NCBI GenBank assembly: GCA_002310415.1
Contig: DBYN01000001.1
Span: forward strand, 4,332-68,331
Reading direction: 5' to 3'
Source of the DNA: Alphaproteobacteria bacterium UBA1185
GTDB taxonomy: Bacteria; Pseudomonadota; Alphaproteobacteria; Rs-D84
DNA length: 64,000 nucleotides
Shown here: positions 29,554-64,000 of the stretch, one piece after another
Layout of the letters: the number at the start of each line of letters is the position of its first letter
How positions within the stretch are numbered: position 1 is the stretch's first letter
The notes under the pieces: model-generated
The model's database searches: none
What the model was told of the DNA's origin: nothing
The model's input: only the letters and a program-made list of their open reading frames with translations
Program-made: the position numbers and the translations under genes

Positions 29554-30999
29554 CTACAAGTTTTCTTCACAATCTTCACAATCGTCAGTTTCAGAATATT
29601 CTTCAACCATAATCGGGGCCGCCTTGGCTGGTTCAGTATAATGTACCTCTTTCACAACACGAACCCGCCGATTCTCAGCATTTGGTGTATTGTTTGGTGT
29701 AGGTATTTTTAAATCCTCTTCGCCCGCTGACACAGCGATAATTTGCGAAGCAGGTATACCATATTCAATCAGCATTTTTTGAACAGCCTCTGCACGACGA
29801 CCACCAAGCGCATAATTATAAGAACTTGAACCAGCCGTATCGGTATGCCCAACCACAGAAACCTTGATATTTTTATTCGCTTGGGTTGTAGAAGCCAATT
29901 TTCTGATTAATTCTTCGTATTCAGGCTTTATTGTTGCCTTGTTAAAGTCGAATCTAATTTCAAAAACTTCTTCCATAACGTGTTGTTTTGGTTCTAATGG
30001 GATTTGTTGTACTTTGATAACCGTCTTATCGCCAGAATTACCCATTTCATCCAAACGTTTGTTTATATTTGCCAACTCGGCACGCATAGACATCATCATT
30101 TCAATAAATTCATCACGCGATACATACTCATCATCAGTATCTGCCCCGCCATTATTAGTAGCATTTTCTTCACCACCATAAATATTCTGGTTAAATACAA
30201 ACGGTTGCTGGGTTGGTTGCGGTACAGCGACAGGAACCGGCTGCTGTTGATTATGAACATTAACAGATACAGGAACCGGTTGCACCAAATTAGATGGGAT
30301 ATTAACATTATTCACAATTATCACACCATCACGTGTCCGCGTTTCTCCAGCCATAGCATTCAAACGACGGGTTTCCGGATAATATTTTTCAACTTCTGTG
30401 CTTTGCTCAACATTTTCAACGACTTGTTCAACTTCTTTGGTTGCAGCAACCATTTTACCATCTCTGCAATCTTTTATTGCCTGCAAAGTATCAATAAAAC
30501 GTTGTCTGCATTCGCGCGCAGTAGATTGTTGTCCACTGGCTGCGGCAGACAACCAACAATCAAATTTTGCCTGGGCCTCTGCCGACAATTTTGGTTGTGC
30601 ATCCACAGCATCATTTTTAAATTCGTTCAGCAAATCGTTATAAGCAGTATAAATTTCAAACCTTTCATTATCATCAGTTATATTCCAATTATCCAAAGTT
30701 TCAGGAAACGGTGTTTCACCAGAAAACGCGCTAACTGCTTTTTGAGCAAACAATTCACCAACCATCGGGTACCCACTGGTACGAGCATTATAAATCGCAT
30801 AAGACCGATAATTCATAGCCAACTGATTTAAAAAAGAATCCTGGTGTGGCGCATCATTAACATTTAAACTTTCAACATAATCAACAGTTGGTGTTTCATG
30901 TTCCACAACATCCCCCTGTTTATCAGTTGTATTAACACAACCAGCCAATACGAACACCGACAACAATGCCAACACTGACACAGAACTCTTGTTTTTCAT
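29554..30999 (-). CDS. OmpA-family peptidoglycan-binding lipoprotein
   Basis: Lipobox LSVFVLAGC. A Pro/Gln-rich linker (QQQPVPVAVPQPTQQP). C-terminal OmpA-like domain VSVVGHTDTAGSSSYNYALGGRRAEAV..NRRVRV. Confidence 0.85.
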   Translation of the reverse strand: MKNKSSVSVLALLSVFVLAGCVNTTDKQGDVVEHETPTVDYVESLNVNDAPHQDSFLNQLAMNYRSYAIYNARTSGYPMVGELFAQKAVSAFSGETPFPETLDNWNITDDNERFEIYTAYNDLLNEFKNDAVDAQPKLSAEAQAKFDCWLSAAASGQQSTARECRQRFIDTLQAIKDCRDGKMVAATKEVEQVVENVEQSTEVEKYYPETRRLNAMAGETRTRDGVIIVNNVNIPSNLVQPVPVSVNVHNQQQPVPVAVPQPTQQPFVFNQNIYGGEENATNNGGADTDDEYVSRDEFIEMMMSMRAELANINKRLDEMGNSGDKTVIKVQQIPLEPKQHVMEEVFEIRFDFNKATIKPEYEELIRKLASTTQANKNIKVSVVGHTDTAGSSSYNYALGGRRAEAVQKMLIEYGIPASQIIAVSAGEEDLKIPTPNNTPNAENRRVRVVKEVHYTEPAKAAPIMVEEYSETDDCEDCEENL

Positions 31000-31083: not shown

Positions 31084-31908
31084 TTATTTATTGAATGATT
31101 GTAAAGCCTGGCCACCAAACGAAGACAACACCGTTGAAATTCCACCAGCGCCACTGGTCGCACCCAGCGATTGAGCCATACCAACAACATCAGACACACC
31201 CGCAGCCCCGGTTGAACTGCCCACGCTACTGATTGTACCAACCAAGAAATTTCCCCACAATTCACGTTTCTTTTTACTGATAGTATCCGGCGCACATCTT
31301 TCTGCTTTTTCTAACAAACCACGCACTTTTGACAACTCTGATTCCGTATAATCTTCGGGACCAAACGGTATCTTGCCCAATACTATATATATATTTGAAA
31401 TATCTTTTTTATTATCCAGTTTTCCACTACTTGCCTTTGGATATCCAGCCCAGATATAATATTGATCCGGTCCTTTATTGTCTTTAAATTTCTCATAACA
31501 ACCGTCTTTGTCGGCATCAGCCATACAATTTTCATAACTACTATAATCACCATCTTCAACATTTTGACCACCAACGCTGTCGCGTGCACCAGCGGCACTG
31601 GTATCACCAATCTTTGCCCATTCTTTGACCAAATTATTAACTACTTCCTTATCACTAGATGATGGAGCACATCCAGCACTTAATTCATGTTGGTCTTTTT
31701 TTAATTTCTGAATACCTTGGACCAATCCCATAACACTGCCCAGTACACCAGTCGCACTTTGCAATCCGCCCGCCAAGCCACCAGACGATTCACTGGCAAC
31801 AGGTGCAGCCTTCTTAACAGCCGATTGTTTTTGAACAACAATCGCACCCAACGACACAGATGGTGCCAAAATACATAAACTAATAAAGACAGACAGTAAT
31901 CTTTTCAT
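31084..31908 (-). CDS. Secreted Gly/Ser-rich protein with glycine-zipper-like ends, unknown family (P6)
   Basis: Signal peptide MKRLLSVFISLCILAPSVSLGA. N-terminal GGLAGGLQSATGVLGSVMGLVQG and C-terminal GTISSVGSSTGAAGVSDVVGMAQSLGATSGAGG segments flank a central region with four Cys. Confidence 0.65.
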   Translation of the reverse strand: MKRLLSVFISLCILAPSVSLGAIVVQKQSAVKKAAPVASESSGGLAGGLQSATGVLGSVMGLVQGIQKLKKDQHELSAGCAPSSSDKEVVNNLVKEWAKIGDTSAAGARDSVGGQNVEDGDYSSYENCMADADKDGCYEKFKDNKGPDQYYIWAGYPKASSGKLDNKKDISNIYIVLGKIPFGPEDYTESELSKVRGLLEKAERCAPDTISKKKRELWGNFLVGTISSVGSSTGAAGVSDVVGMAQSLGATSGAGGISTVLSSFGGQALQSFNK

Positions 31909-43723: not shown

Positions 43724-44323
43724 TTACCATTCCATACGTTTTATAAATCTGATAACCGTAGTATATTGAACATTCATGACCTTGGCAATTTTATATGCAG
43801 ACATACCAGAATCTAATAACCTGCGCACTTTTAAAGCATTATCGGTCATTTTTAATTTTTTTGATTGCGCAGACAACGGCCGCCCCAAATGCTTACCAGC
43901 AGCACGAATATTATCTAATGACGATTTTGTACGTTGACTGATAAGTTGCCTTTCAATTTCTGCCGATATACCAAATGCGAAAGCCATAACTTTTGATTGT
44001 ATATCATCGCCTAATTTGTAACTTTCTTTGATGGTCCAAACCTGACAATTTTTATTCAAACAATTTTCTAATATACGCATAACTTCCAACAAAGAACGTC
44101 CCAACCGAGATATTTCGGCCGATATTAAAATATCGTTTGCCTGTAATTCATTTAATAATTGCCCCAGTTGTCGTTTATGTAACGGCTGTCGCGAAGAAAT
44201 AGTTTCTTTGACCCACATATCTATTTTAATATTATTCCGTTTAGCAAATTGTTGTATTTCAAATCGCTGATGTTCAACAGTTTGTTTATTTGATGATACA
44301 CGAATATATCCAATAATCGACAT
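43724..44323 (-). CDS. Small serine recombinase (resolvase/invertase family)
   Basis: 199 aa. IGYIRVSSNKQ carries the catalytic Ser context. ISRLGRS and the Arg-rich E-helix region are present. The C-terminal HTH is GMSAYKIAKVMNVQYTTVIRFIKR. Confidence 0.85.
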   Translation of the reverse strand: MSIIGYIRVSSNKQTVEHQRFEIQQFAKRNNIKIDMWVKETISSRQPLHKRQLGQLLNELQANDILISAEISRLGRSLLEVMRILENCLNKNCQVWTIKESYKLGDDIQSKVMAFAFGISAEIERQLISQRTKSSLDNIRAAGKHLGRPLSAQSKKLKMTDNALKVRRLLDSGMSAYKIAKVMNVQYTTVIRFIKRMEW

Positions 44324-44587
44324 TTTATAACTCCTTGATATTAAAGATTTTTTTTGATATTTTTTCTTGTATTTTAATAGTACGTTTAAATCAACATATT
44401 TTTTAATTTTTTTTTCATTTTTTATTTTACATACAAAAAAACCAGAAAACCGGCTTTTTTTGAATCTTTATAAACTTCATGTCAACATATACTAGCGTTT
44501 GTTACACAAACGTACCTTTGTGCAACAATTATTTTTGTAACGATAATTCGTTTACTTTTTAATTAATTAAAAACAAAGGAAAACAAA

Positions 44588-46540
44588 ATGAAAAAAACTT
44601 TATGTTTAACATCCTTGCTTGCAATTATGGCAACCAATGCTGCAATTGCAAATACAGATGTAACTTTTGGTGGTAAATATTTATTGCCAGATGGGACAGA
44701 AGCAAACGTCAGCACAAATGTTGGCGACACCACATATACCTATACTAAAACTGATGGTTCCAATGCGACCGCAGCATATGATGAAGACCCAAATTTAACA
44801 TATTTTACATATACAAACAAAGATGGTATTACCGCTAATTTATCATCTGGAACTGGTTTGACACAATCTGATTTTAATGCAGACAGTGCCGCAACAGGTG
44901 ATGTAATAACAACACAAACAATAGCAGCAGGCGAAACCGCAGATAGAGCAAATTATACATACGTAAATGGTAAAGGTAATACTGTTGTATTGGGTGACGC
45001 TAAACAATCTTTCACAGAATCATACAATTTATTAACAGGTTTACCAATTTCTAACGATTATACTATCGCATTGGCTGATAATTATATCACCTCTGTTGAT
45101 GTCACAGATGGCACACCAGATAACACTTTGGATGGTACACACTATATTTTACATGCATCTAATAACAATGATTACAGACTGAACGAAGACGGAACTGAAA
45201 TCAGAAAAGTCAGCGACGGCAGTATTGTTAATATTGCAGATTTTCCAGATATAAGTTCAGAATTAACTGCTTTACAAAATGCATACACTTCAGATGTCTC
45301 TGCAATCAACAATTTGAGAACACAAACCGGTGACTGGGCCGCCGATGAAACAACAGCATGGGGGACCGCTGATACAATATTTAATACCGATTCAAATAAA
45401 ATTAACACATTGAATGGATATTATACAGAATACACCGATGCATTAAGCGCATTGGATGCAGCAAATTCAGCAAAAGCAGATGCTGTTGAAGCAAATACAG
45501 AAAATATTGCCTATCAAACCGCTGCACGCGATTTGTATAATTCATCAATTGAAACGACATTAGCAAGTGTAGAACAAAATGCCAAAGATTACGCGGACAA
45601 TTTGGCATCTAATTATGATGCAGCAGGTTCTGCAAATACTGCTGAACAAAACGCCAAAGATTACGCAGACAATTTAGCATCTAATTATGATGCAGCGGGT
45701 TCTGCAAATACTGCTGAACAAAATGCCAAAGATTACGCAGACAATTTGGCATCTAATTATGATGCTGCCGGAACATCTGCCACAGAAACCGCACGTGCAA
45801 CAGCAGAAGAAGCATCTATTCGTTCGGATTTTGCGACTGCGGATACTGCGACATTAACTGCTGCAAATGGTTATACAGATACGGCTGTATCGGTCGAAGC
45901 AGCACGTGTTGATGCAACAATGGGTACAATCCATGGATTGGTTGGAAACGCAAACGCACCTACAACATCTAATGGTAAAAAATACAATGGCAACTTGGCA
46001 GTTGGTACAACAGTTGAAGACCATTTATTAGCATTAGATGATTCAATCGGTGACAGAAGAACCTTGAACGGTAATCATGTGTCTAAATCTGTTTCCGTTG
46101 TTGAAAACCTGCAATCTTTGAATGACGATTTAGATGCAGAAATTGCACGTGCAACAGCAGAAGAAGCATCTATCCGTTCAGATTTTGCAGCTGCTGATGC
46201 TTTGACTTTAAACCAAGCAAAAGCATATGCAGATAACATTAATGCATTGAACTTGCAGGCGGCCAAATCTTATACAGATGAACGTATTCAAAAATTAGAC
46301 AAAGATTTGTCTGCTGGTATCGCCAGTTCTGTTGCTTTATCTTCTGTATCTGTATCAAATGTTCAAAAAGGCGAAGTATCCGTCGGTGCAGGTTACGGAT
46401 TATATAACGGTCAATCCGCAATGGCATTTGGTGCAGCAATGGGCTTGTCTAACAACTGGTCTGTAAATGCCGGTGCCGGAATTTCTAATTCGGATTTTTC
46501 GTTCCGCGCAGGTACAAATTATAAATTCAAATTATTTTAA
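44588..46540 (+). CDS. Trimeric autotransporter adhesin (YadA-like C-terminal anchor)
   Basis: Signal peptide MKKTLCLTSLLAIMATNAAIA. A Thr/Asn/Asp-rich passenger is followed by repeated stalk motifs (ARATAEEASIRSDFA.AD twice). The C-terminal anchor is AGIASSVALSSVS...SVGAGYGLYNGQSAMAFGAAMGLSNNWSVNAGAGIS..FRAGTNYKFKLF. Confidence 0.85.
   Translation: MKKTLCLTSLLAIMATNAAIANTDVTFGGKYLLPDGTEANVSTNVGDTTYTYTKTDGSNATAAYDEDPNLTYFTYTNKDGITANLSSGTGLTQSDFNADSAATGDVITTQTIAAGETADRANYTYVNGKGNTVVLGDAKQSFTESYNLLTGLPISNDYTIALADNYITSVDVTDGTPDNTLDGTHYILHASNNNDYRLNEDGTEIRKVSDGSIVNIADFPDISSELTALQNAYTSDVSAINNLRTQTGDWAADETTAWGTADTIFNTDSNKINTLNGYYTEYTDALSALDAANSAKADAVEANTENIAYQTAARDLYNSSIETTLASVEQNAKDYADNLASNYDAAGSANTAEQNAKDYADNLASNYDAAGSANTAEQNAKDYADNLASNYDAAGTSATETARATAEEASIRSDFATADTATLTAANGYTDTAVSVEAARVDATMGTIHGLVGNANAPTTSNGKKYNGNLAVGTTVEDHLLALDDSIGDRRTLNGNHVSKSVSVVENLQSLNDDLDAEIARATAEEASIRSDFAAADALTLNQAKAYADNINALNLQAAKSYTDERIQKLDKDLSAGIASSVALSSVSVSNVQKGEVSVGAGYGLYNGQSAMAFGAAMGLSNNWSVNAGAGISNSDFSFRAGTNYKFKLF
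45572..45770 (+). repeat. 72-nt in-frame tandem repeat (~2.75 copies) inside the adhesin gene
   Basis: Units start at 45572, 45644 and 45716 and encode EQNAKDYADNLASNYDAAGSANTA. Copies differ at only a few, mostly synonymous, positions. Confidence 0.9.
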
Positions 46541-51025: not shown

Positions 51026-51180
51026 TTTATTTCCTTTGGTTTATAACAGCCAATGACCCCATGCCATCAGCAGGAACAAACCACATTATGCAGATTTTTT
51101 ATAAAAATGCAAGTTTTTTTACAAATATGTATTAAATCTCTATTGACATAAACCTTTAAATTTTACTACCATTTCATTGA

Positions 51181-52344
51181 ATGAGGGATTTAATGATGAA
51201 GAAATTTCACAGAAATCTTAATATAATGTCCATTTTCACAGCATTATTGTTGGTTGGTATTTTGCTGTTTTGGCACACGTTTATGAATATCGCTATATCT
51301 AATATCTTGTTAAATGGCATTATTATCGGCACAACGATTTTCGGCATCGGGTTGTGTTTTGTAAACATTTTTAATTTATTACCCGAATATAAATGGTTAC
51401 ATGCATATTTTGACGGACGCGCAGATTCTGGTTTTATACCAAAATTATTGCGTCCTATTGCCTTGGCTTTACACAACAGACACGTGCATATTACTACAAC
51501 CAATTTAACAGAATTATTAGATTTGGTTTCTATACGAATTGAAGACGAACGTGATTCTGTAAGATATGTTACCAATACATTGATTTTTTTGGGATTGCTT
51601 GGCACATTTTGGGGATTGATTTTAACAGTTGGTGGATTTGCAGATTTGTTAATGCACTTGGATTTTGATGATTCTGCGGTTTTGAATAATATGCAAATGG
51701 GAATGGCGAAACCATTAGCTGGTATGGCAACCGCATTTACGAGTTCCTTACTTGGTCTTGCGGGCAGTTTGGTTGTTGGATTTTTGGGTCTGCAGTTACA
51801 ATTTGCACAAAATACTATTTTTCAAGATTTAACCGATTTAATGTCAAAGTATGTTTTAAAACGTCCAGATATGGGTGAAAAAGCAATGGAGTTATCAGAA
51901 AAAGCCCCCGTAACAGAAGGGATATACGAAAAAATATCCAACATATACGACATATTCACGAATAACGGGTATGAAATATGTGATTTAATACGAATTGATG
52001 GAAAACATCCCGCGGTCGTTGCATTGGGCAATAATGAAACCTTGTTCATCGGAACAACGGGTGTTGATAACGAAACATTGAAAAACACGTTAAAACGAAT
52101 CGAATTGTGTTTTGCAGATACACTGGAAGGAATCAAAATAAACACTAAAATATTATGCATATCAGGAAACAAAGAAACTGTCGATGACAATATTATGCAT
52201 TTTGTTTCCGCTGGAACAATGCGCAAATACATGGAACAACACAAAAACGTTCGCCCACAAACAAAACAAGATTGGGAAACATTTGATGCGTATGCTGAAT
52301 ACATTCGCATAGCAATTGAATACTTGTTTAAACCAAATAAATAA
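51181..52344 (+). CDS. MotA/TolQ/ExbB-family proton-channel protein with ~170-aa C-terminal soluble extension
   Basis: Four predicted TMs. Family-typical LIFLGLLGTFWGL and GMATAFTSSLLGLAGSLVVGF are present. A C-terminal domain of unknown family is unusual for TolQ/ExbB/MotA. Confidence 0.7.
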   Translation: MRDLMMKKFHRNLNIMSIFTALLLVGILLFWHTFMNIAISNILLNGIIIGTTIFGIGLCFVNIFNLLPEYKWLHAYFDGRADSGFIPKLLRPIALALHNRHVHITTTNLTELLDLVSIRIEDERDSVRYVTNTLIFLGLLGTFWGLILTVGGFADLLMHLDFDDSAVLNNMQMGMAKPLAGMATAFTSSLLGLAGSLVVGFLGLQLQFAQNTIFQDLTDLMSKYVLKRPDMGEKAMELSEKAPVTEGIYEKISNIYDIFTNNGYEICDLIRIDGKHPAVVALGNNETLFIGTTGVDNETLKNTLKRIELCFADTLEGIKINTKILCISGNKETVDDNIMHFVSAGTMRKYMEQHKNVRPQTKQDWETFDAYAEYIRIAIEYLFKPNK

Positions 52345-52364
52345 ATATTTAAAGGAGAGAGACA

Positions 52365-53522
52365 ATGATGAATATACGCTTTCGTGAAAAAACAAATGCA
52401 TGGCCGGGCTTTGTAGATTTGTTTTCAAATCTGGTTATTATTTTGATTTTCTTATTAATTGTGTTTGTATTTTTATGGACAACGACCAGTGTATTTAATA
52501 AGCATTCTGACGCCCAAAAAGTTGCCGCATTGGAACAAGCAACACAAGAACAAGCGGAACAAATTGTTCAAATGCAAGCGGATGACGAAACTGCCACACA
52601 ACTTTTATTACAGGCACGTGATGCATTGGAAAATCAAGAGGCAGAAAAAGCACAAATGGCTGACACTTTTGAAAAACAAAAGGAAGATATTGCCAATGCT
52701 TATGAACAACAACTTTCTGAATTAGAAGGTCAAAAGGTTGATATTGCAAAAGATTATGAAAATCAAATTGCAGAATTAACTGCGACACAACAAGCAATGT
52801 CTGATGAAATTGCAGAATTAAAGCAACAATTGGAACAAGCCACAATTTCCAAAAGCGAATTGGAGAAAATGGAGGCAGAACGCCATGATATGACCGATAA
52901 ATTGTTGGCTGAAAAGACCGAATTAAACAATCAAATTAACGAATTAACCGCTAAATTGGACAAGGCCGAACAATTAGCCAAACAGCAGGACGTAGAATAT
53001 GTCGAAATGTCGAATCGGTTAAACAAAGCATTAGCTGATAAAATCGCAGAATTAAACACAATGGCACAGTATCAATCTGCATTCTATAAACAGGTCAAAG
53101 ATGCACTGGGTGACAGAACAACAATCAAACAAGAAGGCGACAGATTTATCGTATCCAGCGATATTTTATTCCCCAGTGGTTCGTACAAAATATCAGCAGA
53201 TGGTAAAAAACAGTTGAAATTGTTGGCGAACATAATCAAAGAATTTGAAGAAAAAATTCCAACTGATATTGATTGGATAATTCGCGTTGACGGACATACT
53301 GATAACAAGGCTGTTGTTGCCGGCACACCGGGGTACAAAGATAACATGCAATTATCATTATTACGTGCAACTGCTGTTACAAACGAATTGGTTAAAAACG
53401 GTGTATCGAAAAGACGCTTGGTTCCATCTGGATTTGGTGAATTGCACCCGATTGCTTTGGGTGATGATCCCGCAGATTTACAGAAAAACCGTCGTATAGA
53501 ATTGCAATTAACAAACAAATAA
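52365..53522 (+). CDS. MotB/OmpA-like protein with long coiled-coil linker
   Basis: The N-terminal AWPGFVDLFSNLVIILIFLLIV is a MotB-type TM plug region. About 190 aa of Q/E/K/L-rich coiled coil follow. The C-terminal OmpA-like domain is IRVDGHTDN..LSLLRATAV..GFGELHP..NRRIELQL. Confidence 0.75.
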   Translation: MMNIRFREKTNAWPGFVDLFSNLVIILIFLLIVFVFLWTTTSVFNKHSDAQKVAALEQATQEQAEQIVQMQADDETATQLLLQARDALENQEAEKAQMADTFEKQKEDIANAYEQQLSELEGQKVDIAKDYENQIAELTATQQAMSDEIAELKQQLEQATISKSELEKMEAERHDMTDKLLAEKTELNNQINELTAKLDKAEQLAKQQDVEYVEMSNRLNKALADKIAELNTMAQYQSAFYKQVKDALGDRTTIKQEGDRFIVSSDILFPSGSYKISADGKKQLKLLANIIKEFEEKIPTDIDWIIRVDGHTDNKAVVAGTPGYKDNMQLSLLRATAVTNELVKNGVSKRRLVPSGFGELHPIALGDDPADLQKNRRIELQLTNK

Positions 53523-53523
53523 C

Positions 53524-53557
53524 AAAAAAACACCGCCAAATTGGCGGTGTTTTTTTG
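53524..53557. terminator. Bidirectional rho-independent terminator
   Basis: A run, then CACCGCC-AAATT-GGCGGTG, then a T run, between convergent genes. Confidence 0.8.
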
Positions 53558-53571
53558 GTATGTCGTTTATA

Positions 53572-54198
53572 TTAACGACTAAATTTACCTTTTTGTTGAT
53601 AATATCTTTTAACGTTAATTATCGATGGAACACTATTGCATACCGCGCGCACTGTTGCGGTATTGCCTTTACCAGCGATAATTTTGTCTATTTGGCAACT
53701 AGGAAACTTCCTTTCCAAGCCAGCACGACCGTATATCGGTTCTTTTTTGACTGAGAATTCGCATTTGCCATTTTTAAACTTAGCGCCTAAATCCAAACAA
53801 ATATCTTTCAAGTTTTTAAGCTTGTCGCATCTAACCATTCTGTTATCATCTTCTGGGTTATCGCACCAAATGCCACTTGCCTTCATTTCGCGTAATATAT
53901 CATACTTTTTATATGGATTGCATTTTTTACCCAATTGTTTCAGCGATTCTACTAAATACTGATTATTGCATGGATTGTCCGAACTAGCTAAAAATTTTTC
54001 TTCCTCTTCAAGCTCTTTTCTTTCCTCCATATCACGTTCCCATGCGTACATTCCTAAATCTTCGACCCAGGTATCACCACGCTCTACATCTGAATCATCA
54101 CAACGATCACAAATAACCACACAAATAATCAAAAGAAGGAACAATCCCATACCGGCACAACCAAGTCCAGCATTTTTCGATTTTTCTTGATTTTTCAT
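53572..54198 (-). CDS. N-terminally anchored cysteine-rich protein, unknown family
   Basis: TM segment GLGCAGMGLFLLLIICVVIC, an acidic stretch (EERKELEEEEK), then spaced cysteines (PCNNQY..KKCNPY..IWCDNP..VRCDKL..ICLDLG..GKCEF..PSCQ..AVCNS). Confidence 0.6.
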   Translation of the reverse strand: MKNQEKSKNAGLGCAGMGLFLLLIICVVICDRCDDSDVERGDTWVEDLGMYAWERDMEERKELEEEEKFLASSDNPCNNQYLVESLKQLGKKCNPYKKYDILREMKASGIWCDNPEDDNRMVRCDKLKNLKDICLDLGAKFKNGKCEFSVKKEPIYGRAGLERKFPSCQIDKIIAGKGNTATVRAVCNSVPSIINVKRYYQQKGKFSR

Positions 54199-55561: not shown

Positions 55562-55984
55562 TTATTGTCCAAGTCCCGCTGGCGAAAAACGTCCAATATT
55601 ATTAAACAATTCTTCCAAAGCATTTAACTCTATGGCCGCAGGTATATCAGTTTCGCCTTTTGCCATTTTAATATCTTTCAAATCATCATCATGTAAAACC
55701 TGAGTTTTTACAATTTGATTACCTTTTACCCACACCAACAGTGCAGTTTTATTGTCATATTTTACCGGCAAAGGCCCACGCATAGTTTCATCCGCCCCGT
55801 AATATACCCAAACTTCATCGCCATGAACAGTTTTGACTTGTGGGTCACCAATAGAATCTTGCAATTGAGTAGTTGTCTTTATAGCCACCAATTTATCATC
55901 TAAATCATCTGGGAAAACATACCCACGATGCTTCGTTTGACAGGCACACAAAACCAACAACACAAATAATAAAATTTTTTTCAT
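55562..55984 (-). CDS. bamE: Outer membrane protein assembly factor BamE (SmpA/OmlA family lipoprotein)
   Basis: Lipobox LLVLCAC. HRGYVFPDD..L..I..TTQLQDSIGDPQVKT..GDEVWVYY is the BamE pattern. Confidence 0.7.
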   Translation of the reverse strand: MKKILLFVLLVLCACQTKHRGYVFPDDLDDKLVAIKTTTQLQDSIGDPQVKTVHGDEVWVYYGADETMRGPLPVKYDNKTALLVWVKGNQIVKTQVLHDDDLKDIKMAKGETDIPAAIELNALEELFNNIGRFSPAGLGQ

Positions 55985-56874
55985 TTTTCTTTATCCTTTG
56001 CATTCATACATTTAAGAACATTTTCTGTTTCTATTTGTTTCAGTACATTACTTTGATATTCTGTTGAATTTAGTAACTTATCCGCATCCATACCAATTTC
56101 TTTCGCTAATTCTTTGACAAACCATTGTTTACCAAATTTAATATTACGGTATAATTCTAAAAATTTTTGTGTTGCAGAAACGCGTGATAAATTGGATGTT
56201 AACCGAATGTGTTCAACAACCGCCCTAACCCACAAATAAGATGACATATATGATGGCTGAAAAGAACACGTCATATGTGGAACACTATCAGAAAACTCAA
56301 TGCTGCTTAATAATTCATTTGCAGTATATATTTTATTCATTGAACGCATAGCACCAACATGAATCGGATTTTTTTTATCATATTCCATAACATACCATGG
56401 AACCAATTCCGCAAAACCTTCCCCAAACATTTGAGCATCTGAACCAAACAAGTGTTGTATTAAATGCGCATATTCATGTATGTTGTTTATGTGCTGTTCC
56501 ATACTAATTGGTCTATCCGAAATCAACAAATTTTGACTTGAACCATACGCGGTATTAAATCCGTCCATATCATAGCAATCCACAGGTCTGCCCCCACCTT
56601 TTCTATCTTTATATGGATACCGCAACAATTCTGCAAAATTTTCATCTGGAACAATATACAAATAAAATATAGGTTTTGCGTTTGCAGGATATCTTATTTG
56701 CATCTTGTTCAATTCGTTAATGCATTTTTTATGCTCTGCAATTTGTATATCATAGCGCCCCGCATCAAAATTCTTTGCGATATCAGATGACATACGCGCA
56801 CAAAACACCCCGTCAATAATCACACGATATTCAGATTCTTTTATATAGTCTCGCAAAGCATCATGTGTTTGCAT
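55981..56874 (-). CDS. Putative gluzincin-type metallopeptidase (HExxH ... EGFAE), unknown family
   Basis: HEYAHLIQHLFGSDAQMFGEGFAE gives an HExxH with a downstream E-G-F-A-E third-ligand context. No signal peptide. The stop overlaps the bamE start by 4 nt, and the gene begins 3 nt after the PFOR stop. Confidence 0.5.
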   Translation of the reverse strand: MQTHDALRDYIKESEYRVIIDGVFCARMSSDIAKNFDAGRYDIQIAEHKKCINELNKMQIRYPANAKPIFYLYIVPDENFAELLRYPYKDRKGGGRPVDCYDMDGFNTAYGSSQNLLISDRPISMEQHINNIHEYAHLIQHLFGSDAQMFGEGFAELVPWYVMEYDKKNPIHVGAMRSMNKIYTANELLSSIEFSDSVPHMTCSFQPSYMSSYLWVRAVVEHIRLTSNLSRVSATQKFLELYRNIKFGKQWFVKELAKEIGMDADKLLNSTEYQSNVLKQIETENVLKCMNAKDKEK

Positions 56875-56877: not shown

Positions 56878-59800
56878 TCAACCCTCCCCATTATCTTTTT
56901 TTACTTTGACTGCAAAATTAGCAATATGTTGTTTTAATTCCACTTTGTATAAATTGTTAGATTTTGCTTGTTCCACCAACTTGTCAAAATTCGGGTTCAC
57001 AGACCGAGCAGCAGCAAATCGTGTTTCAGATTTCATAAATTCTTCCAATGGGAATGGTGTATCAACACACGAATCCATCGTCAAAGGATTTTTCCCATCA
57101 CTTATAACAGATGGATTAAATCTGAACAACGGCCATGCCCCCGTATTAACTAAATTTATTTGATGTTCAACTGCATTCTGCAATGCAAATCCATGTGCTA
57201 TACATGGCGCATACGCCAAAATAATAGATGGACCGTCAAACTCTTCCGCTTCTTTAAATGCACGTATTGCCTGTGCCTGGTTTGCCCCCAATGCAATTTG
57301 CGCCACATATGCCCCAGACATCATCGCAATCAACCCCAAATCTTTTTTAGCATGCGTTTTGCCACCAATCGCAAATTTCATAGATGCACCAAACGGCGTA
57401 GATTTAGATTGCTGACCACCAGTATTTGAATACCCTTCTGTATCCAATACCAAAATATTAACATTTTCACCACTGTGCAAAATATGATCCAAACCACCAT
57501 AACCAATATCGTATGCCCAACCATCACCCCCAACAATCCATACAGATTTATCAACAATTGCATCTAATAAACTTTCTGCATACCTGGCACGATTATCGGA
57601 TATTTGTGATAATTGTTTCTGTAAATCCCGCATAATCTGGCGTTGGTTACCGACATTCTTTTCTGCAAACAAAGATTCTACATTTGAAATATTCAATTCA
57701 AACAAAACACTTCTTAATGCAGAACGCTTTTGGTTCAAAGCGATTCGCATACCTAAACCATATTCTGCATTATCTTCGAACAAAGAATTAGACCATGCTG
57801 GTCCGCGCCCATTTTCATCACATGTCCATGGTGTAGTTGGCAAATTTCCACCATAAATAGATGAACAACCAGTCGCATTTGCAACAACCATTTTGTCACC
57901 AAACAATTGCGCCATCAAACGAATATACGGCGTTTCGCCACATCCCGAACACGCACCTGGAAATTCAAAATAATGTGGCAACAATTCAACATGCTTTGGA
58001 ATATTTAAATTTAATTTTTGTTTATCTATATCCGGAATTTTTAAAGCCAAATCAAAAGGCTTCTGATTTTTAATTCCATCTTTCATAGGTATCAAAGAAA
58101 TCGCCTCTACTGGACAATTCTTCATACATAAACCGCATCCAGTACAATCGGACGGCGATATGTTTAAAGTATAAAATAAATCAGCACCCAATTCAGGCGT
58201 TTTCATAGGAACAACCACAATACCATTTTTTTGTGCCTTTTCCATATCTGTTTTATTCATAACCTTGATACGAATTGCACCATGCGGGCAAAGCATAGAA
58301 CATTTTCCACACTGAATACATTTGCTTAAATCACAATTTGCGACACGTGTTGCCAGCGCACGTTTTTCATATTTAGCGGTTCCAACAGGATATTGTCCTG
58401 CCCCAAAATTTCCATCAATTTTAAACCTGGATACAGGTATATCATCGCCACGTCCAGCCGCCATTTCACCCAAAGTGCCAGCAATTTCAGTGGGTGTATC
58501 CAATGTCATAGCCGGTATAAAATCAGGTGCCAATTCAGAAACAGAAGATGGAAAATCATATTTTGTTAAATAAGTGTCTGCCCTGTCCACTGCATCCCAG
58601 TTTGCTTGAACAACATCCATACCTTTCTTTTTGTACGTTTTTTCTATTGCAGATTTTGCGGCATCTTTTGCAACATTCACATCTATGACATTTGTTAAAT
58701 TAAAGAAATTTAACATAATGAAAGTATTTATTCGATTACCCAACCCCAATTCATTTGCCGCCCGATTAGCATCCAGAAAATATAAATTTGCTCGCATACG
58801 AATCAGATGCTCTTGGGCAGATTTGGGCAAATTTATGAATGCCTCATCTGGATTCATAGACGTATTTATCATAACCGTTCCACCTGGACGCAAAGCACTA
58901 AACACATCAAATCTTTGTGCAATCATAAAATTAGAAACACAAATAAAATCGGCAGATTCCACTAAATACTCACTTTTTATTGGCTTGTGCGAAAATCTGA
59001 TATGAGACTGCGTTACCCCACCAGATTTCTTGGAATCGTACACCGCATAAGATTGCGGATATAAATCAGAATTTTCCCCGACAATTTTAACAATATTTTT
59101 AACCGCACCGACCGTCCCATCACTGCCAATTCCATATAAAATCGCTGTTTTGACATCTGGGTTTTCAATTGTAAAAGATTTGTCAGTATTCAAAGACAAA
59201 TGCGTTAAATCGTCATCTATACCCACAGTAAAATTATGATGTAATTCACCACGCATCATATATTCAACGATTGCTTTGACATCACGCGGTTTAAATTCTT
59301 TTGACCCCAAACCATAACGTCCACCAAATACAGCAATTTTTGAATCAACAATTGCCCGAACATTTTGATATAGCGGCTCACCTATTGAACCCGCCTCTTT
59401 TGTTCTGTCCAATACAGCAATTTGTTGTACTGAATGTGGCAAAGCCTTTAAAAACGCTTTGACAGGAAATGGATTGAATAAATGAATTCGCATTAACCCA
59501 ACCCCTGCTGGTAAAAAATTCAAAGTCTCTTCAATTGTTTCACAACTTGACCCCATTGCAACAATCACATACTTTGCGTTTTTATCACCTACATAATGCA
59601 CCAATCCATATTTACGACCTGTTAATTTGGCAAATTCATCCATGCAATTTTGAACAATATCTGGAACATTATCATATAGCGAATTAGCAGCCTCTCGACT
59701 TTGGAAATAAACATCTGGATTTTGAGCAGTTCCCCGAATTTTTGGTTTTTCAGGATTCATACCGCGCGCACGATTTTGTGCAACCAGGTCATCTGGAATC

Positions 59801-60375
59801 AATTTACGTAAAACATCATCTTCTATACGAACCAGCGCAGATTCTTCATGACTTGTTCTGAATCCATCAAAGAAATGCAAAAACGGAACACGTGTCCGCA
59901 ATGTAGCCATATGCGCAATTGCCGCCATATCATGTGCCTGTTGCACATTATGCGAAGATAACAAAGCAAAACCAGTTTGACGTACAGCCATAACATCACT
60001 GTGATCACCAAAAATAGATAATGCATGTGTAGCCAACGCACGCGCCGCAACATGTATGACACAAGGTGTCTGTTCACCTGCTATCTTGTACATATTTGGA
60101 ATCATCAACAACAAACCCTGGGATGCAGTAAAAGTTGTTGCAATGGAACCCATTTGTAAAACACCATGCAAAGCACCCGCTGCACCGGCTTCTGATTGCA
60201 TTTCGATTATATCAGGTATTACCCCCCAAATATTTTTTTTATGTTGAAAAGACCATTCGTCAGACAATTCACCCATTGTACTGCTGGGGGTTATTGGATA
60301 AATCGCAGCACAATCAACACATCTGTATGCAACATCAGCCGCCGCCCAGTTTCCATCAACTATCAATTTTGCCAT
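56878..60375 (-). CDS. nifJ: Pyruvate:ferredoxin (flavodoxin) oxidoreductase
   Basis: Start set at MAKLIVDGNWAAADVAYRC (ATG at 60373-60375). Two 4Fe-4S ferredoxin motifs are present (CIQCGKCSMLCPHGA; CTGCGLCMKNCPVEA). The TPP domain has GGDGWAYDIGYGGLDH. About 1165 aa, typical for single-chain PFOR. Confidence 0.93.
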   Translation of the reverse strand: MAKLIVDGNWAAADVAYRCVDCAAIYPITPSSTMGELSDEWSFQHKKNIWGVIPDIIEMQSEAGAAGALHGVLQMGSIATTFTASQGLLLMIPNMYKIAGEQTPCVIHVAARALATHALSIFGDHSDVMAVRQTGFALLSSHNVQQAHDMAAIAHMATLRTRVPFLHFFDGFRTSHEESALVRIEDDVLRKLIPDDLVAQNRARGMNPEKPKIRGTAQNPDVYFQSREAANSLYDNVPDIVQNCMDEFAKLTGRKYGLVHYVGDKNAKYVIVAMGSSCETIEETLNFLPAGVGLMRIHLFNPFPVKAFLKALPHSVQQIAVLDRTKEAGSIGEPLYQNVRAIVDSKIAVFGGRYGLGSKEFKPRDVKAIVEYMMRGELHHNFTVGIDDDLTHLSLNTDKSFTIENPDVKTAILYGIGSDGTVGAVKNIVKIVGENSDLYPQSYAVYDSKKSGGVTQSHIRFSHKPIKSEYLVESADFICVSNFMIAQRFDVFSALRPGGTVMINTSMNPDEAFINLPKSAQEHLIRMRANLYFLDANRAANELGLGNRINTFIMLNFFNLTNVIDVNVAKDAAKSAIEKTYKKKGMDVVQANWDAVDRADTYLTKYDFPSSVSELAPDFIPAMTLDTPTEIAGTLGEMAAGRGDDIPVSRFKIDGNFGAGQYPVGTAKYEKRALATRVANCDLSKCIQCGKCSMLCPHGAIRIKVMNKTDMEKAQKNGIVVVPMKTPELGADLFYTLNISPSDCTGCGLCMKNCPVEAISLIPMKDGIKNQKPFDLALKIPDIDKQKLNLNIPKHVELLPHYFEFPGACSGCGETPYIRLMAQLFGDKMVVANATGCSSIYGGNLPTTPWTCDENGRGPAWSNSLFEDNAEYGLGMRIALNQKRSALRSVLFELNISNVESLFAEKNVGNQRQIMRDLQKQLSQISDNRARYAESLLDAIVDKSVWIVGGDGWAYDIGYGGLDHILHSGENVNILVLDTEGYSNTGGQQSKSTPFGASMKFAIGGKTHAKKDLGLIAMMSGAYVAQIALGANQAQAIRAFKEAEEFDGPSIILAYAPCIAHGFALQNAVEHQINLVNTGAWPLFRFNPSVISDGKNPLTMDSCVDTPFPLEEFMKSETRFAAARSVNPNFDKLVEQAKSNNLYKVELKQHIANFAVKVKKDNGEG

Positions 60376-60451
60376 ATTAAAAAAACCTTTGCTTTCGAAC
60401 ACATATTTATCTGGCACAAATCTTACCGCTTTTGGCAAATGAAAGCAAGTT

Positions 60452-63400
60452 TTATTCTACTGATTCATCATGTGCATACCATGTTCCACCAGAATCAATA
60501 ATTACCAACTGATTATCTGATTCAGACGTTATTGTGTGTACAGTTTGTGACAATAACATGTGATATGTCTGACCGTCCTTGCGTGCAATCAAAGCCTTGG
60601 TATTGACACCCGGCAAACCATCAATCAAACACATCGTCGCGCCCATAACCGCCATTTCTGTACAATTGGATGCAGGTTCTGATTGAACAAGGCATCCACC
60701 AGTTTGTGCATCATATATGCAAATTATTTCATCACCTGTTTCGACATCAGTGTATACCAACCATAATGTTGGTTGATTTGGACAATTCGGTTCACCAGAA
60801 CAAGACTCACATTGCCCAGATATTTCTGGCTTTTGTCCGGCACCACACACAACAGAGGTATTAGCAGGAATACACGAAACCTTGCCAGACCAATCGGATT
60901 CAAAACCGGTTGTGTATTGAATCAACGGCGCAGTACACGATGTATCAAGATTGGTTCCTTCAAATATATATTCCATTGGGTCGTCGCCTGTATCAGGATA
61001 CGGATTTGGTGCCGTTAAATTTGCAAACAATGTTGGTGGCACATATCCGGACAAATTGGTCGCATCCATAAACATACCATAAAACATACCTTCTGCCGGT
61101 GTACCGGTAATATTCGGGAATAAACTGTTCGGCAGTTGTGTCAACGACGTACACCCATAAAAAGTAGCCCCAAACATACTCTGAACCCCTGTTACATCAC
61201 CCACCCCGGGGAACAGGTTTTCCGGTATTGATTGCAACGATGTACAATTAAAAAATGTATACGAATACATACCATCCGCCGCACCGGTTACGTGTTCAAA
61301 CAAAGTTGCAGGAATTGGGTTAGTTATTTTCGGATCTGCACCCAATTCCGTACATCCTTCGAATGTACCCCAAAACATGAAGTCTGCTGCATTTGTAATA
61401 CCATTGAATAAGCCCGCTGGGATAAATGTTATTTGGGTCTCTGCAAAAGTCATATAAAACATATATTCTGCCCCACCGGTTACATGTTCAAACAAAGTTT
61501 CAGGAATAGATGTTATCGGTGTATAAGCAAAAGTCATATAAAACATACCTTCTGCCCCACCGGTTACATGTTCAAACAAAGTTTCAGGAATAGATGTTAT
61601 CGGTGTATAAGCAAATGTCCCAGAAAACATACCTTCTGCCGCACCGGTTACACCGTCAAACAAATTTGCAGAAATTGATTTCAACGATGTACAACCATAA
61701 AATGTATTAAAAAATAAAGGTTGAGCAATTATTTGGTTATTTGAATTACGTATTGTTGGAAATACATGTCCCAAAGACCCACGCAATGCCGCAACAAACT
61801 CTCTTCCGTTTTCATAATATAATACACCTTCTACTTCGGAATAATCAGTGGCGGTTCCACCAATACTGATAGTATACGATTGCTGAGTCTCGTACGTATG
61901 TGTTATTGAAAGTCCAGAATCTTTTGATGTGGGTATAAACTCTACCGGACTGTTGTCACCCCAATCTATGAAAAATTTTCCAGCCGCAGATATATATAAA
62001 GTAAATTCACCAACTGTATCACTTGTTGTATCAATAAAGAATTCGTATTGTGGAATGGCTTCACATGAAACTTTGCCATTTAAATCATATTCTGGATTAT
62101 ATTGAAAGGTATTTGACGGACACGATTCCAACAACCCCGTATTACGAAATGTGTCATTATTGGCATAATTTTCGACTTCTTGGTCAAATGTCATGTTATC
62201 AAATATGCTGGCCGGTATATAATATGTACTGCTGCCATTAACCGCATTTTTACCAAGATTCGTATCGCCTGTAAACGTTTTTTCAAAAATTGAACCATCT
62301 ACTTCTGTACCACTTAAATTACCAAATAAATGATCTGGTATTGGCCCATACAAATTTTGGTTGTTATTAAATGTATATGCAAACATGTTGGGGGCAGGAT
62401 TGCCATAAATACCGGTAAACAAATTATCCGGTATTGTTCCAGTCAGATTTGGCAACCCATAAAATGTAAAAATAAATCGTGGCTGTACTTCTAATAAATC
62501 TGTACCAGTTAAATTTGCCGTATTATCCGACAAAGTTGGGAATATAGCCCCCAATGAACCATGTATACCGGTAACAATGTCTGAATCAAATCTGATTGCA
62601 GACGGTGGAATATCGTTTAATACAAACTCACTAGTTGGATACCCAGTTGCCAAACCGGTAATACTGATGGTGTGCTGTCCCGAATTCCAATAGTGACAAC
62701 AAACGCTACTTATATTTTCATCTGCATCCAATCTTGCGAAATAACCTTGGTAATAATCGGCCCATAAACCACCAACATCACCACAATCAAAAAAGAATTC
62801 CCCGGCGGCACCTACATCAAAACAAACTCTACCATACACCCCATCTTCATTTGGTTCGTCATTCGTGGTTACCGTTAATGTAAATGGAAAATTATTTGGT
62901 CGATCTACACATTCGGTGTACGCAGAATTAGCAACTTTACCATTTGGACATGCCGTACAAGCCTCTCTGCCTGAAAACCACTCTTCAAAACCTGTTTCGT
63001 ACGATATAGACGTTGGTGGACACATATCCACACCAGAATTTTCAAATACATCCGACATCTGATATTTTGCCGATTTTACGGGATCATTATTAATACCCGC
63101 AAATAAATCCGGTGGCACAGTTCCCGTTAAATTCCAACAATTATCAAACGTATATGCAAACATGTATTCTGCGGGGTCACCAGAAATGCCATAATACGTG
63201 CCATTAATTTTACGTCCAAACAAAGTACCAGGGATATTACCAGTTAAATTTTCACACGCTTCAAATGTCATCTCAAACATAGACGGTTGTGGGGTGCCTT
63301 TAATACCGTGATATGTACCATTAATAACCCGACCAAACAAGTTTCCCGGTATTGATCCTGATAAGCCCGAACAATTCGCAAAAGTCTTCGCAAACATACT

Positions 63401-64000
63401 TTCTTTTGCATCACCATTTATGCCAGCAAATAAATTTTCTGGAATAGATCCGGTCAATCCAGAACAATTCCAAAAAGTTCCATCAAACAGATTATTGGTT
63501 GGTGAGCCTTTGACACCATAATACGTTCCATTAACATAACGCCCAAACAAAGTTTCTGGAATTGAACCAGTTAAATTGTTATCACCACTAAAAGTTTCAC
63601 TAAACATAGAAAACGCCACACCATCAATACCAGAATACTCACCATTAACAACACGTCCGAACAAATCACCCGGGATAGTACCTCTTAACTCATTGCACCC
63701 TGCAAATGTGGAATCAAACATAAGGGCAGAAACACCGGTTATACCGGTAAACAAAGTTGGCGGAATTGCATAATATTTACCCGGATTATTTGGATCTGGT
63801 TCATCTGTATCAGCCATAAGTTCACATCCAAAAAATGTTTGATTGAATCTTGGGTTGGCAACTTCATTCGTACCAACGTTATTGCTTGTCGGGAATAAAG
63901 CCCCCAAAGATCCTTTGATCTTATATATATTTTGCGGTGTTCCTACACCATCGATATTTGCAAAAGTAATTGCAGGCAGATAACCAAGACCATTGTAACC
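60452..64000 (-). CDS. Giant surface protein with LRR-like (F-x-x-C-x-x-L-T-G-x-I-P-x-x-LF) repeats and Cys-rich inserts; 5' end lies beyond the window
   Basis: More than 1180 codons are open. The tracked start at 63907 is TTG, and hand translation upstream (..GYNGLGYLPAITFANIDGVGTPQNIYKIKGS-LGALFPT..) stays open to position 64000. There are dozens of repeats such as MFAKTFANCSGLSGSIPGNLFGRVINGTYHGIKG, reminiscent of BspA/LRR-type bacterial surface proteins. Cys-rich segments include ACTACPNGKVANSAYTEC and CGAGQKPEISGQCESCSGEPNCP. Confidence 0.75.
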   Translation of the reverse strand, partial: GYNGLGYLPAITFANIDGVGTPQNIYKIKGSLGALFPTSNNVGTNEVANPRFNQTFFGCELMADTDEPDPNNPGKYYAIPPTLFTGITGVSALMFDSTFAGCNELRGTIPGDLFGRVVNGEYSGIDGVAFSMFSETFSGDNNLTGSIPETLFGRYVNGTYYGVKGSPTNNLFDGTFWNCSGLTGSIPENLFAGINGDAKESMFAKTFANCSGLSGSIPGNLFGRVINGTYHGIKGTPQPSMFEMTFEACENLTGNIPGTLFGRKINGTYYGISGDPAEYMFAYTFDNCWNLTGTVPPDLFAGINNDPVKSAKYQMSDVFENSGVDMCPPTSISYETGFEEWFSGREACTACPNGKVANSAYTECVDRPNNFPFTLTVTTNDEPNEDGVYGRVCFDVGAAGEFFFDCGDVGGLWADYYQGYFARLDADENISSVCCHYWNSGQHTISITGLATGYPTSEFVLNDIPPSAIRFDSDIVTGIHGSLGAIFPTLSDNTANLTGTDLLEVQPRFIFTFYGLPNLTGTIPDNLFTGIYGNPAPNMFAYTFNNNQNLYGPIPDHLFGNLSGTEVDGSIFEKTFTGDTNLGKNAVNGSSTYYIPASIFDNMTFDQEVENYANNDTFRNTGLLESCPSNTFQYNPEYDLNGKVSCEAIPQYEFFIDTTSDTVGEFTLYISAAGKFFIDWGDNSPVEFIPTSKDSGLSITHTYETQQSYTISIGGTATDYSEVEGVLYYENGREFVAALRGSLGHVFPTIRNSNNQIIAQPLFFNTFYGCTSLKSISANLFDGVTGAAEGMFSGTFAYTPITSIPETLFEHVTGGAEGMFYMTFAYTPITSIPETLFEHVTGGAEYMFYMTFAETQITFIPAGLFNGITNAADFMFWGTFEGCTELGADPKITNPIPATLFEHVTGAADGMYSYTFFNCTSLQSIPENLFPGVGDVTGVQSMFGATFYGCTSLTQLPNSLFPNITGTPAEGMFYGMFMDATNLSGYVPPTLFANLTAPNPYPDTGDDPMEYIFEGTNLDTSCTAPLIQYTTGFESDWSGKVSCIPANTSVVCGAGQKPEISGQCESCSGEPNCPNQPTLWLVYTDVETGDEIICIYDAQTGGCLVQSEPASNCTEMAVMGATMCLIDGLPGVNTKALIARKDGQTYHMLLSQTVHTITSESDNQLVIIDSGGTWYAHDESVE
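61443..61694 (-). repeat. 84-nt in-frame tandem repeat (3 units, first two nearly identical) within the giant surface-protein gene
   Basis: Units start at 61443, 61527 and 61611 on the plus strand and encode ITSIPETLFEHVTGGAEGMFYMTFAYTP. Units 1 and 2 differ at only a few bases. Confidence 0.9.

Follow-up and report, generated by a model that had tools for sequence, protein, structure and literature searches.

What process could be served by a pair of stator-type genes that stands apart from any flagellar, Tol-Pal, TonB or gliding gene? The question is raised by a locus in a 64,000-nucleotide stretch of DNA from Alphaproteobacteria bacterium UBA1185 (contig DBYN01000001.1, positions 4,332 to 68,331 of the forward strand), referred to here as the window. 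Two adjacent genes, called A and B in the following, encode a putative ion-channel subunit of the MotA/ExbB/TolQ/ZorA superfamily and a putative peptidoglycan-anchoring subunit. An initial annotation, made from the DNA sequence, had described them as an orphan MotA/MotB-like pair with two non-canonical additions, a soluble C-terminal domain on A and a coiled coil of ~190 amino acids (aa) on B. With somewhat better than even confidence, we favor the reading that A-B is a member of a large, vertically inherited and mainly alphaproteobacterial stator family that forms a branch separate from MotAB, ExbBD, TolQR and ZorAB and has a housekeeping role linked to the envelope or cell wall.

A channel subunit and a wall-anchoring subunit

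Both open reading frames (ORFs) exist as initially annotated, with channel motifs on A and a transmembrane (TM) Asp and an OmpA domain on B (Table 1). Hydropathy and charge place four hydrophobic segments in A, centered at residues ~25, ~52, ~143 and ~197, behind a positively charged N-terminus. The predicted topology is MotA-like, with the N-terminus inside, four TM helices and a cytoplasmic C-terminus, and the cytoplasmic loop is short (residues 67-128, ~60 aa). The last two helices carry the motifs LGLLGT142FWGL and GMATAFTSS189LLGL, so that the channel signature LGLLGTFWGL ... GMATAFTSSLLGLAGSLVVGF is present, and LGLLGTFWGL is invariant across the A family. Residues G141, T142, G145, M182, F186 and G192 are invariant in 3/3 family alignments and S189 in two of the three. 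At the sequence level, T142 and S189 supply the conserved polar Thr/Ser residues that mark the channel-subunit superfamily. In ZorA, Thr147 and Ser184 line the ion path facing Asp26 of ZorB (PMC11946911), and T142/S189 of A together with Asp18 of B correspond in kind to these residues.

All matches of A to sequence models are weak or lie below the threshold of the model. Pfam MotA_ExbB (PF01618) scores A at 16.1 bits (E = 0.0095), below its gathering score of 22.9, and distant A homologs reach 16-20 bits. None of the NCBIfam MotA, PomA, TolQ and ExbB models matches A at E < 1. The only NCBIfam matches are ZorA_4 (E = 2.4e-6, 26.7 bits vs a cut-off of 500) and ZorA_2 (21.7 bits vs a cut-off of 100). 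PADLOC ZorA1 matches residues 124-250 with E = 3.9e-12, and 13 further ZorA models match as well.

The predicted structure of A agrees with solved stator A subunits in the fold of its membrane domain. The model (AlphaFold2, AF2) has a predicted local distance difference test score (pLDDT) of 70.8 overall and of 80-88 across most of residues 110-220, which include the last two TM helices. Foldseek searches with this model returned ExbB (9ddo_B), ZorA (8vvn_D) and TolQ (8odt_A) at probability 1.00 and also PomA (8zyv), the set as a whole having probabilities of 0.9-1.0 and TMt of 0.4-0.57; 5sv0 is a further structural neighbor of the membrane domain. A full-length A-family profile, run against PDB sequences and swamped there by coiled-coil matches, hit ZorA chains as the only solved stators (8vvn_C, E = 0.01; 8vvi_F, E = 0.079).

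B has the layout of a stator B-subunit, with a short, basic N-terminus and a single N-terminal TM helix that has a conserved Asp near its cytoplasmic end. This residue, Asp18 in the sequence WPGFVD, is the candidate ion-binding residue. WPG(F/Y)VD is kept in 116/120 homologs from the Enterousia group, to which the closest relatives of A belong, and in all six other B orthologs compared (L019, L021-L024 and Sinorhizobium meliloti), and the range over which Asp18 is kept extends from Enterousia to S. meliloti and Roseomonas. The periplasmic region that follows (residues 45-240) contains no Pro, one Gly and 52% E/Q/K/A, and its heptad contrast is z = 5.9 vs shuffles. Coiled-coil families, among them cortexillin, match this region weakly, as does the SMC-like JetC. 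The C-terminal OmpA-like domain matches PF00691 with E = 3.5e-17 and 63 bits, above the gathering score of 27.2.

NCBIfam NF006543 (PRK09039.1-2) aligns with B end to end (residues 7-384 of B against positions 11-349 of the 350 in the model), and its 232.8 bits fall short of the equivalog cut-off of 305. B is therefore related to, but divergent from, the PRK09039 family named 'peptidoglycan-binding protein' (NF006542-NF006546). As far as we found, this family is annotated but functionally unstudied, and its name denotes a domain rather than a tested function. The coiled coil noticed in the initial annotation is present on B, but it is no peculiar addition, being a hallmark of this large family, in which B proteins span 342-941 aa. 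The C-terminus of B also matches ZorB models (PADLOC ZorB3, E = 2.9e-22), and searches of PDB sequences matched the peptidoglycan-binding domains of PomB, MotB and MotS. The NCBIfam MotB, MotD and MotS models score 40-62 bits vs cut-offs of 250-300, and neither Pfam nor NCBIfam finds an ExbD or TolR domain in B. By these comparisons the closest known system is ZorAB, which gives the best sequence-model matches for both subunits and is the only solved stator matched by the full-length profile, followed by MotAB/PomAB and TolQR/ExbBD.

The pair could in principle be a spare or specialized flagellar stator, a paralog of MotAB or PomAB, as the PGAP and JGI names 'flagellar motor protein MotA' and 'chemotaxis protein MotB' on its homologs imply. 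Flagellar stators share with it a four-TM A subunit, a B subunit with an N-terminal TM Asp and an OmpA-like domain, and a presumed 5:2 architecture, and the OmpA domain of B is nearest to those of PomB, MotB and MotS among solved structures. However, MotA has a long torque-generating cytoplasmic loop, whereas A has a loop of ~60 aa and an extra C-terminal domain, and the plug and linker of MotB are replaced in B by a coiled coil that spans 190-750 aa in the family and has no MotB counterpart. The missing MotA and PomA matches and the low MotB, MotD and MotS scores also speak against this explanation, as does the lack of flagellar genes among those annotated or read in the window (~26-64 kb) and in 28 related loci, and we consider it extremely unlikely.

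The two genes form a bicistronic operon. They lie on the same strand, 20 nt separate the stop codon of A from the start codon of B, and a ribosome-binding site precedes B. A probably starts at Met5 (position 51193), giving a protein of 383 aa, because the closest database homolog (P0001) is 383 aa long and 100% identical and a GAGGGA sequence lies within the first codons of the longer ORF. The promoter-like site, in the intergenic region between A and the divergent rpsF-rpsR-rplI operon, is a pattern match only, as such sites are no commoner in the region than in shuffles. The stem-loop behind B, with A/T runs on both sides, is a bidirectional intrinsic terminator that closes both the A-B operon and a convergent gene. 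A tblastn search of both proteins against the whole window returned A and B themselves and no second copy of either.

A syntenic family in Alphaproteobacteria

The best matches of A place the source organism among the gut or rumen Alphaproteobacteria of the 'Candidatus Enterousia' group, and a single-protein search of genome contigs returned only Enterousia relatives. Among 1.84 billion representative proteins, 1629 clusters are related to A at a threshold of E <= 1e-3, and a threshold of E <= 1e-10 leaves 784. Outside the Enterousia clade only residues ~10-225 are conserved, with a mean identity of 38%. Named members occur in Nisaea, Dongiaceae, Roseomonas, Sneathiella, Rhodospira, Siccirubricoccus and other Alphaproteobacteria, and one is found outside this class, in the gammaproteobacterium Nitrococcus. 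Their usual database labels are 'flagellar motor protein MotA', 'MotA/TolQ/ExbB proton channel family protein' and 'hypothetical protein'.

The pairing with B is conserved along with A. A coiled-coil OmpA protein is encoded directly 3' of A in 8/8 distant loci, one of which (L028) ends inside the gene downstream of A, so that its domains are unseen. The complete B proteins of the distant loci, including those of S. meliloti, Sneathiella, Roseomonas and Nitrococcus, all bear the coil and are 342-941 aa long. A and B are adjacent in 20/20 Enterousia loci, and the pair adjoins rpsF-rpsR-rplI in 19 of them, with varying genes downstream. The flanking genes in the window are rpsF-rpsR-rplI, ssb and carD, assigned by translation. 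The recurrent gene order is (efp)-suhB-[secreted Pro-rich OmpA protein]-A-B...rpmE-DUF1465. In S. meliloti it reads suhB, LZK74_31000, LZK74_30995, ABC transporter, rpmE, DUF1465, where the A homolog LZK74_31000 is named 'MotA/TolQ/ExbB proton channel family protein' by PGAP and the B ortholog LZK74_30995 'peptidoglycan -binding protein', the same PGAP name as that of the PRK09039 family. No third gene is universally conserved beside A-B among the loci compared.

The S. meliloti record (CP090106.1, locus L025) is a 3.72-Mb replicon labeled 'plasmid pSymB', yet it carries purE, rpmE and suhB and appears to be a mislabeled chromosome. NZ_CP104131.1 and NZ_CP069303.1 (3.5-4.6 Mb) look like records of the same kind.

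Neither phage genomes and viral contigs nor true plasmids gave a match to the pair. By these observations A-B is inherited vertically and with conserved synteny in Alphaproteobacteria. It is set amid housekeeping genes rather than in a mobile or defense context, and it is under strong purifying selection. The initial annotation had asked whether the pair is core in Alphaproteobacteria, and its context is that of the core genome. The word 'orphan' fits the local context, where no flagellar, Tol-Pal, TonB/ExbD or gliding gene was found among the genes annotated or read over ~26-64 kb of the window, as initially reported; it does not fit a syntenic pair inherited with its surroundings.

The distant loci also bear on a possible Tol/Ton-type function. 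Directly 5' of A, the loci of Sneathiella, of Roseomonas and of two Alphaproteobacteria assembled from metagenomes encode a secreted protein (Table 1). Its signal peptide is followed by a long low-complexity linker rich in Pro, Lys and Ala, and an OmpA-like domain forms its C-terminus. The gene is absent at the S. meliloti, Nitrococcus and Enterousia loci, and its product may be a lineage-restricted third component.

This protein is loosely Pal- or TolA-like, and A-B could be read as a divergent motor of the TolQR/ExbBD type that works with a TolA or TonB transducer and with outer-membrane partners from other sites in the genome. TolQR-Pal and ExbBD-TonB use the proton gradient for non-flagellar envelope functions, TolQ and ExbB share the fold of the A membrane domain (9ddo_B, 8odt_A, 5sv0) and are among its top Foldseek matches, and the window itself encodes a 481-aa OmpA-domain lipoprotein. 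In place of the TolR/ExbD periplasmic fold, however, B has a coiled coil and an OmpA domain, so that peptidoglycan binding is built into the subunit, and no ExbD Pfam match was obtained. A has an extra N-terminal TM segment (four predicted TM helices, not three) and no TolQ or ExbB NCBIfam match at E < 1. TolA, TolB, TonB and TonB-dependent receptor genes are adjacent in 0/28 loci, and the upstream OmpA gene is missing from the three groups named above. A Tol/Ton-type motor is therefore very unlikely.

Classical stator systems are disfavored because the pair has no FliG-type loops, flagellar genes, TolR/ExbD domains or TolA/TonB. The initial annotation had placed the pair outside MotAB, TolQR and ExbBD, and this stands: A has a sub-threshold MotA_ExbB score and the C-terminal domain of B is of the OmpA and not of the ExbD/TolR type. 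Neither outcome that would have refuted the initial annotation was observed, whether firm clustering within these groups with partners elsewhere and a characterized ortholog, or a disordered or low-complexity extension on A. Assignment to Zorya, to flagellar stators or to Tol/Ton fails in each case, and the resemblance holds at the superfamily level only.

A literature search found no published study of the A-B family, with the limits that slash-containing protein names search poorly and that the S. meliloti 1021 locus tags were unmapped. A paper on Rgs and Tol-Pal in S. meliloti does not mention OmpA or MotA components, one on MotAB evolution leaves Zorya-type proteins out of its phylogeny and names no such clade, and one on force transducers does not cover the family. 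We consider it rather unlikely, though with a real chance, that an ortholog of A-B has already been described.

The cytoplasmic module of A and the resemblance to Zorya

A ends in a globular domain that is confidently folded in the AF2 prediction. Modeled alone, the C-terminal ~160 aa reach a pLDDT of 85.9 and a predicted TM-score (pTM) of 0.81, which argues that the extra domain seen in the initial annotation is real and neither disordered nor of low complexity. The predicted secondary structure is alpha(246-261), beta(265-272), beta(276-283), beta(287-293), alpha(297-314), beta(321-327), beta(338-341), followed by two further helices. The domain has no match in Pfam, PHROG or PDB sequences, nor in a scan of viral contigs. 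A match to THSD1_N was weak (E = 1e-3, below the cut-off) and was dismissed.

The initial annotation had also taken a D-x4-D-G-K string in this domain as compatible with a PD-(D/E)xK-like fold. The order of elements does match the alpha-beta-beta-beta-alpha-beta core of that fold. Recurring Foldseek neighbors are EcoT38I, the Cap4 nuclease, EndoMS, Kpn2I, CidB/CinB, 'PD-(D/E)XK nuclease superfamily', DUF2726, RecE and RPB5, yet all matches are weak (E = 5e-3 to 3e-2, TM-score 0.3-0.45). EcoT38I, the Cap4 nuclease domain and EndoMS/NucS have a like core order without any match at the sequence level. Invariant positions are D268, R271, G274-K275, E286, K305-R306 and D313-T314. Asp273, at the start of strand 2, is D in 82/121 relatives, N in 34/121 and E in 3/121. 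Glu286, where strand 3 begins, follows Asp273 by 13 residues, a spacing typical for PD-(D/E)xK folds. E286 is invariant, but residue 288, where a Lys would be expected, is Leu, and residue 287 varies among K, T and Q. The canonical catalytic motif, in which strand 2 opens with an Asp and strand 3 carries (D/E)xK, is thus not present, and the D-x4-D-G-K string does not provide it. We tentatively assign a restriction-endonuclease-like fold, with a site that is probably non-canonical or non-catalytic.

The domain is restricted in its distribution. A phmmer search found it in the Enterousia clade only, where it is 61% identical, compared with 81% for the TM domain. Distant A homologs end instead in a helical tail of ~150 residues with the consensus ...PAYxxALLEQTA...RNxD...E.RLlARTIA, which is reminiscent of a short ZorA tail. 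In the nearest relatives outside Enterousia (46-48% identity to A) the match ends at about residue 236, and one of them (P0127) aligns beyond this point as a different, non-globular sequence. Some Enterousia (L018, L019 and L020) have an A protein of only ~257 aa, consisting of the membrane domain and a ~35-residue tail, next to an intact B. The globular domain is therefore dispensable or recently gained. A cytoplasmic extension, listed as non-canonical in the initial annotation, is found family-wide and is helical elsewhere; the lineage-specific feature is the globular domain that replaces the tail in the Enterousia subclade of the window.

We considered whether A-B could be a chromosomally fixed, Zorya-like system against phages or foreign DNA, in which a nuclease effector is fused to a ZorA-like motor and wall perturbation sensed by B activates the motor and five membrane-tethered nuclease-fold domains. 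ZorA and ZorB are the best model matches of the two proteins. ZorAB (Zorya types I-III) likewise combines a B-type subunit carrying a TM Asp and a peptidoglycan-binding domain with an A-type subunit carrying a cytoplasmic C-terminal module, and the 378 aa of type II ZorA (PMC11890865) are close to the length of most family A proteins (~380 aa, with the helical tail). In Zorya, the ZorA tail recruits nucleases as effectors, of which ZorD is Mrr-like and ZorE an HNH nickase (PMC11890865; PMC11946911), and the structural neighbors of the A domain include restriction endonucleases and the Cap4 defense nuclease. Several charged positions of this domain, acidic D268 and E286 and basic K275 and K305/R306, are invariant.

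On the other side, the NCBIfam scores lie far under the ZorA cut-offs. No ZorC, ZorD, ZorE, ZorF or ZorG gene was found beside the pair, and PADLOC reports nothing in the convergent downstream gene. ZorA has a long helical cytoplasmic tail where the A protein of the window has an alpha/beta domain, and ZorB lacks the coiled coil of ~190-750 aa found in family B proteins. Zorya systems occur in defense islands, whereas A-B is core, syntenic and vertically inherited, keeps its site by the rpsF operon and is not found in phages or real plasmids. The C-terminal domain itself is missing from sister species, position 273 is Asn in 28% of relatives, residue 288 is Leu, and the Foldseek support has the low significance given above. 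A Zorya-like system is quite unlikely. A constitutive envelope or wall role is likelier than defense because of the housekeeping synteny and the absence of mobility and effectors.

A further interpretation combines both aspects. A-B could represent a new class of proton-driven 5:2 motor in the alphaproteobacterial core genome, sister to ZorAB or its ancestral stock, with a coiled-coil stalk that senses or acts on peptidoglycan and with interchangeable cytoplasmic outputs, the Enterousia output being a membrane-tethered nuclease-fold domain. In that case the Enterousia pair would be a built-in, non-mobile, Zorya-like device for targeting or handling DNA. We regard this as unlikely.

A working model, its weak points and the surrounding genes

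The preferred reading, a housekeeping stator family of the alphaproteobacterial envelope, can be expressed as a model by analogy with the solved MotAB, ExbBD, TolQR and ZorAB structures. Five A subunits would surround a B dimer (A5B2), and proton flow along the Asp/Thr/Ser pathway would drive rotation of the A ring around B. The OmpA domains at the tip of the coiled-coil stalk would hold B to the cell wall, and the output would be delivered in the cytoplasm through the C-terminal module of A. This module is a ~150-residue helical tail in most members, a compact alpha/beta domain in the Enterousia subclade and a near-absent one in sister species. The most likely role is a housekeeping one linked to the envelope or wall, rather than a flagellar, Tol/Ton or mobile phage-defense function.

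Several points weigh against this reading. The 5:2 stoichiometry, ion conduction and rotation of A-B are taken purely by analogy. The sequence similarity of A to every solved stator is marginal, with MotA_ExbB below its gathering score, and a profile of the N-terminal domain only has no significant match among PDB sequences (ZorA type II, E = 1.6). A has four predicted TM segments, compared with three in ZorA, ExbB and TolQ, and the ZorA-like label therefore applies to the last two helices only. The range in length of B is hard to fit to a stalk or ruler of fixed length between membrane and wall, and the cytoplasmic module of A is variously helical, globular or nearly absent. Finally, the housekeeping role is deduced from synteny and vertical inheritance alone.

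The variable length of the coil would suit a scaffold better than a fixed stalk, and no output partner is conserved. A-B might thus be a static link between wall and membrane, or a scaffold in the periplasm, which retains the architecture of a stator but has lost ion conduction and movement. The residues required for ion-coupled movement in all known 5:2 motors, the TM Asp of B and the Thr/Ser in the last two helices of A, are conserved family-wide, which would be unexpected in a passive tether, and we find this explanation quite improbable.

We take A-B to be a family of its own within a known type of machine, with a lineage-specific domain swap in addition. Small 5:2 motors driven by ions are coming to be seen as a general source of power in bacteria. 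They serve flagella, Ton, Tol, gliding, type 9 secretion, SiiAB and Zorya, and with every new branch another process of the cell envelope has come to light. The A family comprises hundreds of diverged clusters and keeps its synteny from gut Enterousia to Sinorhizobium, and most members are hidden as 'hypothetical protein' or under the misleading label 'flagellar motor protein MotA'. Its presence in tractable species such as S. meliloti makes the function directly testable. The resemblance to ZorAB without effectors bears on the origin of the Zorya defense motor, and the exchange of tails, which may be helical, globular or missing, amounts to a natural experiment in the coupling of motor and output.

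Table 1. Features of the A-B locus, of related loci and of the remaining window. Positions refer to the window unless a related locus is named.
Feature	Position	Strand	Size or residues	Basis or remark
Gene A, stator channel subunit (MotA/ExbB/TolQ/ZorA superfamily)	51181..52344	+	387 aa as ORF	
A membrane domain	51181..51855	+	residues 1-225	hydropathy, charge, invariant columns in distant homologs
A C-terminal globular domain	51916..52329	+	residues 246-383	AF2, Foldseek, phmmer, conservation map
Gene B, peptidoglycan-anchoring stator subunit	52365..53522	+	385 aa ORF	PRK09039-related
B TM helix	52410..52478	+	residues 16-38	hydropathy; single TM, WPGFVD just before
B periplasmic coiled coil	52497..53084	+	residues 45-240	composition, heptad contrast
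B OmpA-like peptidoglycan-binding domain	53166..53492	+	residues 268-376	Pfam PF00691
Promoter-like site TTGACA-18-TACCAT	51143..51172	+		consensus scan, 10/12 matches
Ribosome-binding site of B, AAGGAG	52352..52357	+		7 nt 5' of B ATG, read from sequence
Perfect stem-loop, A/T runs on both sides	53523..53557		16 bp	terminator scan
Short A	L019 8001-8774		~257 aa	without globular C-terminal domain
Upstream secreted OmpA protein	L021 7012-7917; L022 6883-7998; L024 6876-7937; L023 7536-7991			
OmpA-domain predicted lipoprotein	29554-30999	-	481 aa	signal peptide ending ...LAGC; Pfam E = 7.7e-20
Convergent Cys-rich membrane/secreted protein	53572-54198	-	208 aa	no Pfam, NCBIfam, PADLOC or PHROG match
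Serine recombinase (resolvase/invertase family)	43724-44323	-		
YadA-anchor trimeric autotransporter adhesin	44588-46540	+	650 aa	adjoins serine recombinase
Pyruvate:ferredoxin oxidoreductase-like gene	56878-60438			identified by translation only
Flanking ORF	60452-63907	-	1151 aa	no Pfam match at E <= 1e-3
Flanking ORF	55981-56874	-	297 aa	no Pfam match at E <= 1e-3
Flanking ORF	55562-55984	-	140 aa	no Pfam match at E <= 1e-3

Two genes of the window were considered as partners of A-B and set aside. The OmpA-domain lipoprotein could have been the upstream secreted OmpA protein in a new position, but the only link is a tblastn match of E = 0.007 within the OmpA domain, and evidence of orthology is lacking. 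The convergent Cys-rich protein has no family match, and its gene does not lie beside the pair in 20 other Enterousia loci. Other Cys-containing secreted ORFs occur at 26487-27518 and 31084-31908. The three ORFs listed last in Table 1 flank the pyruvate:ferredoxin oxidoreductase-like gene.

The adhesin gene next to the serine recombinase contains a 72-bp repeat in 2.7 copies (45572-45765). Just 5' of its start, a 153-nt region is enclosed by an A/T-rich imperfect inverted repeat (44404-44426 / 44580-44602, 83% complementary). The region may be an invertible switch, but the repeat is of low complexity.

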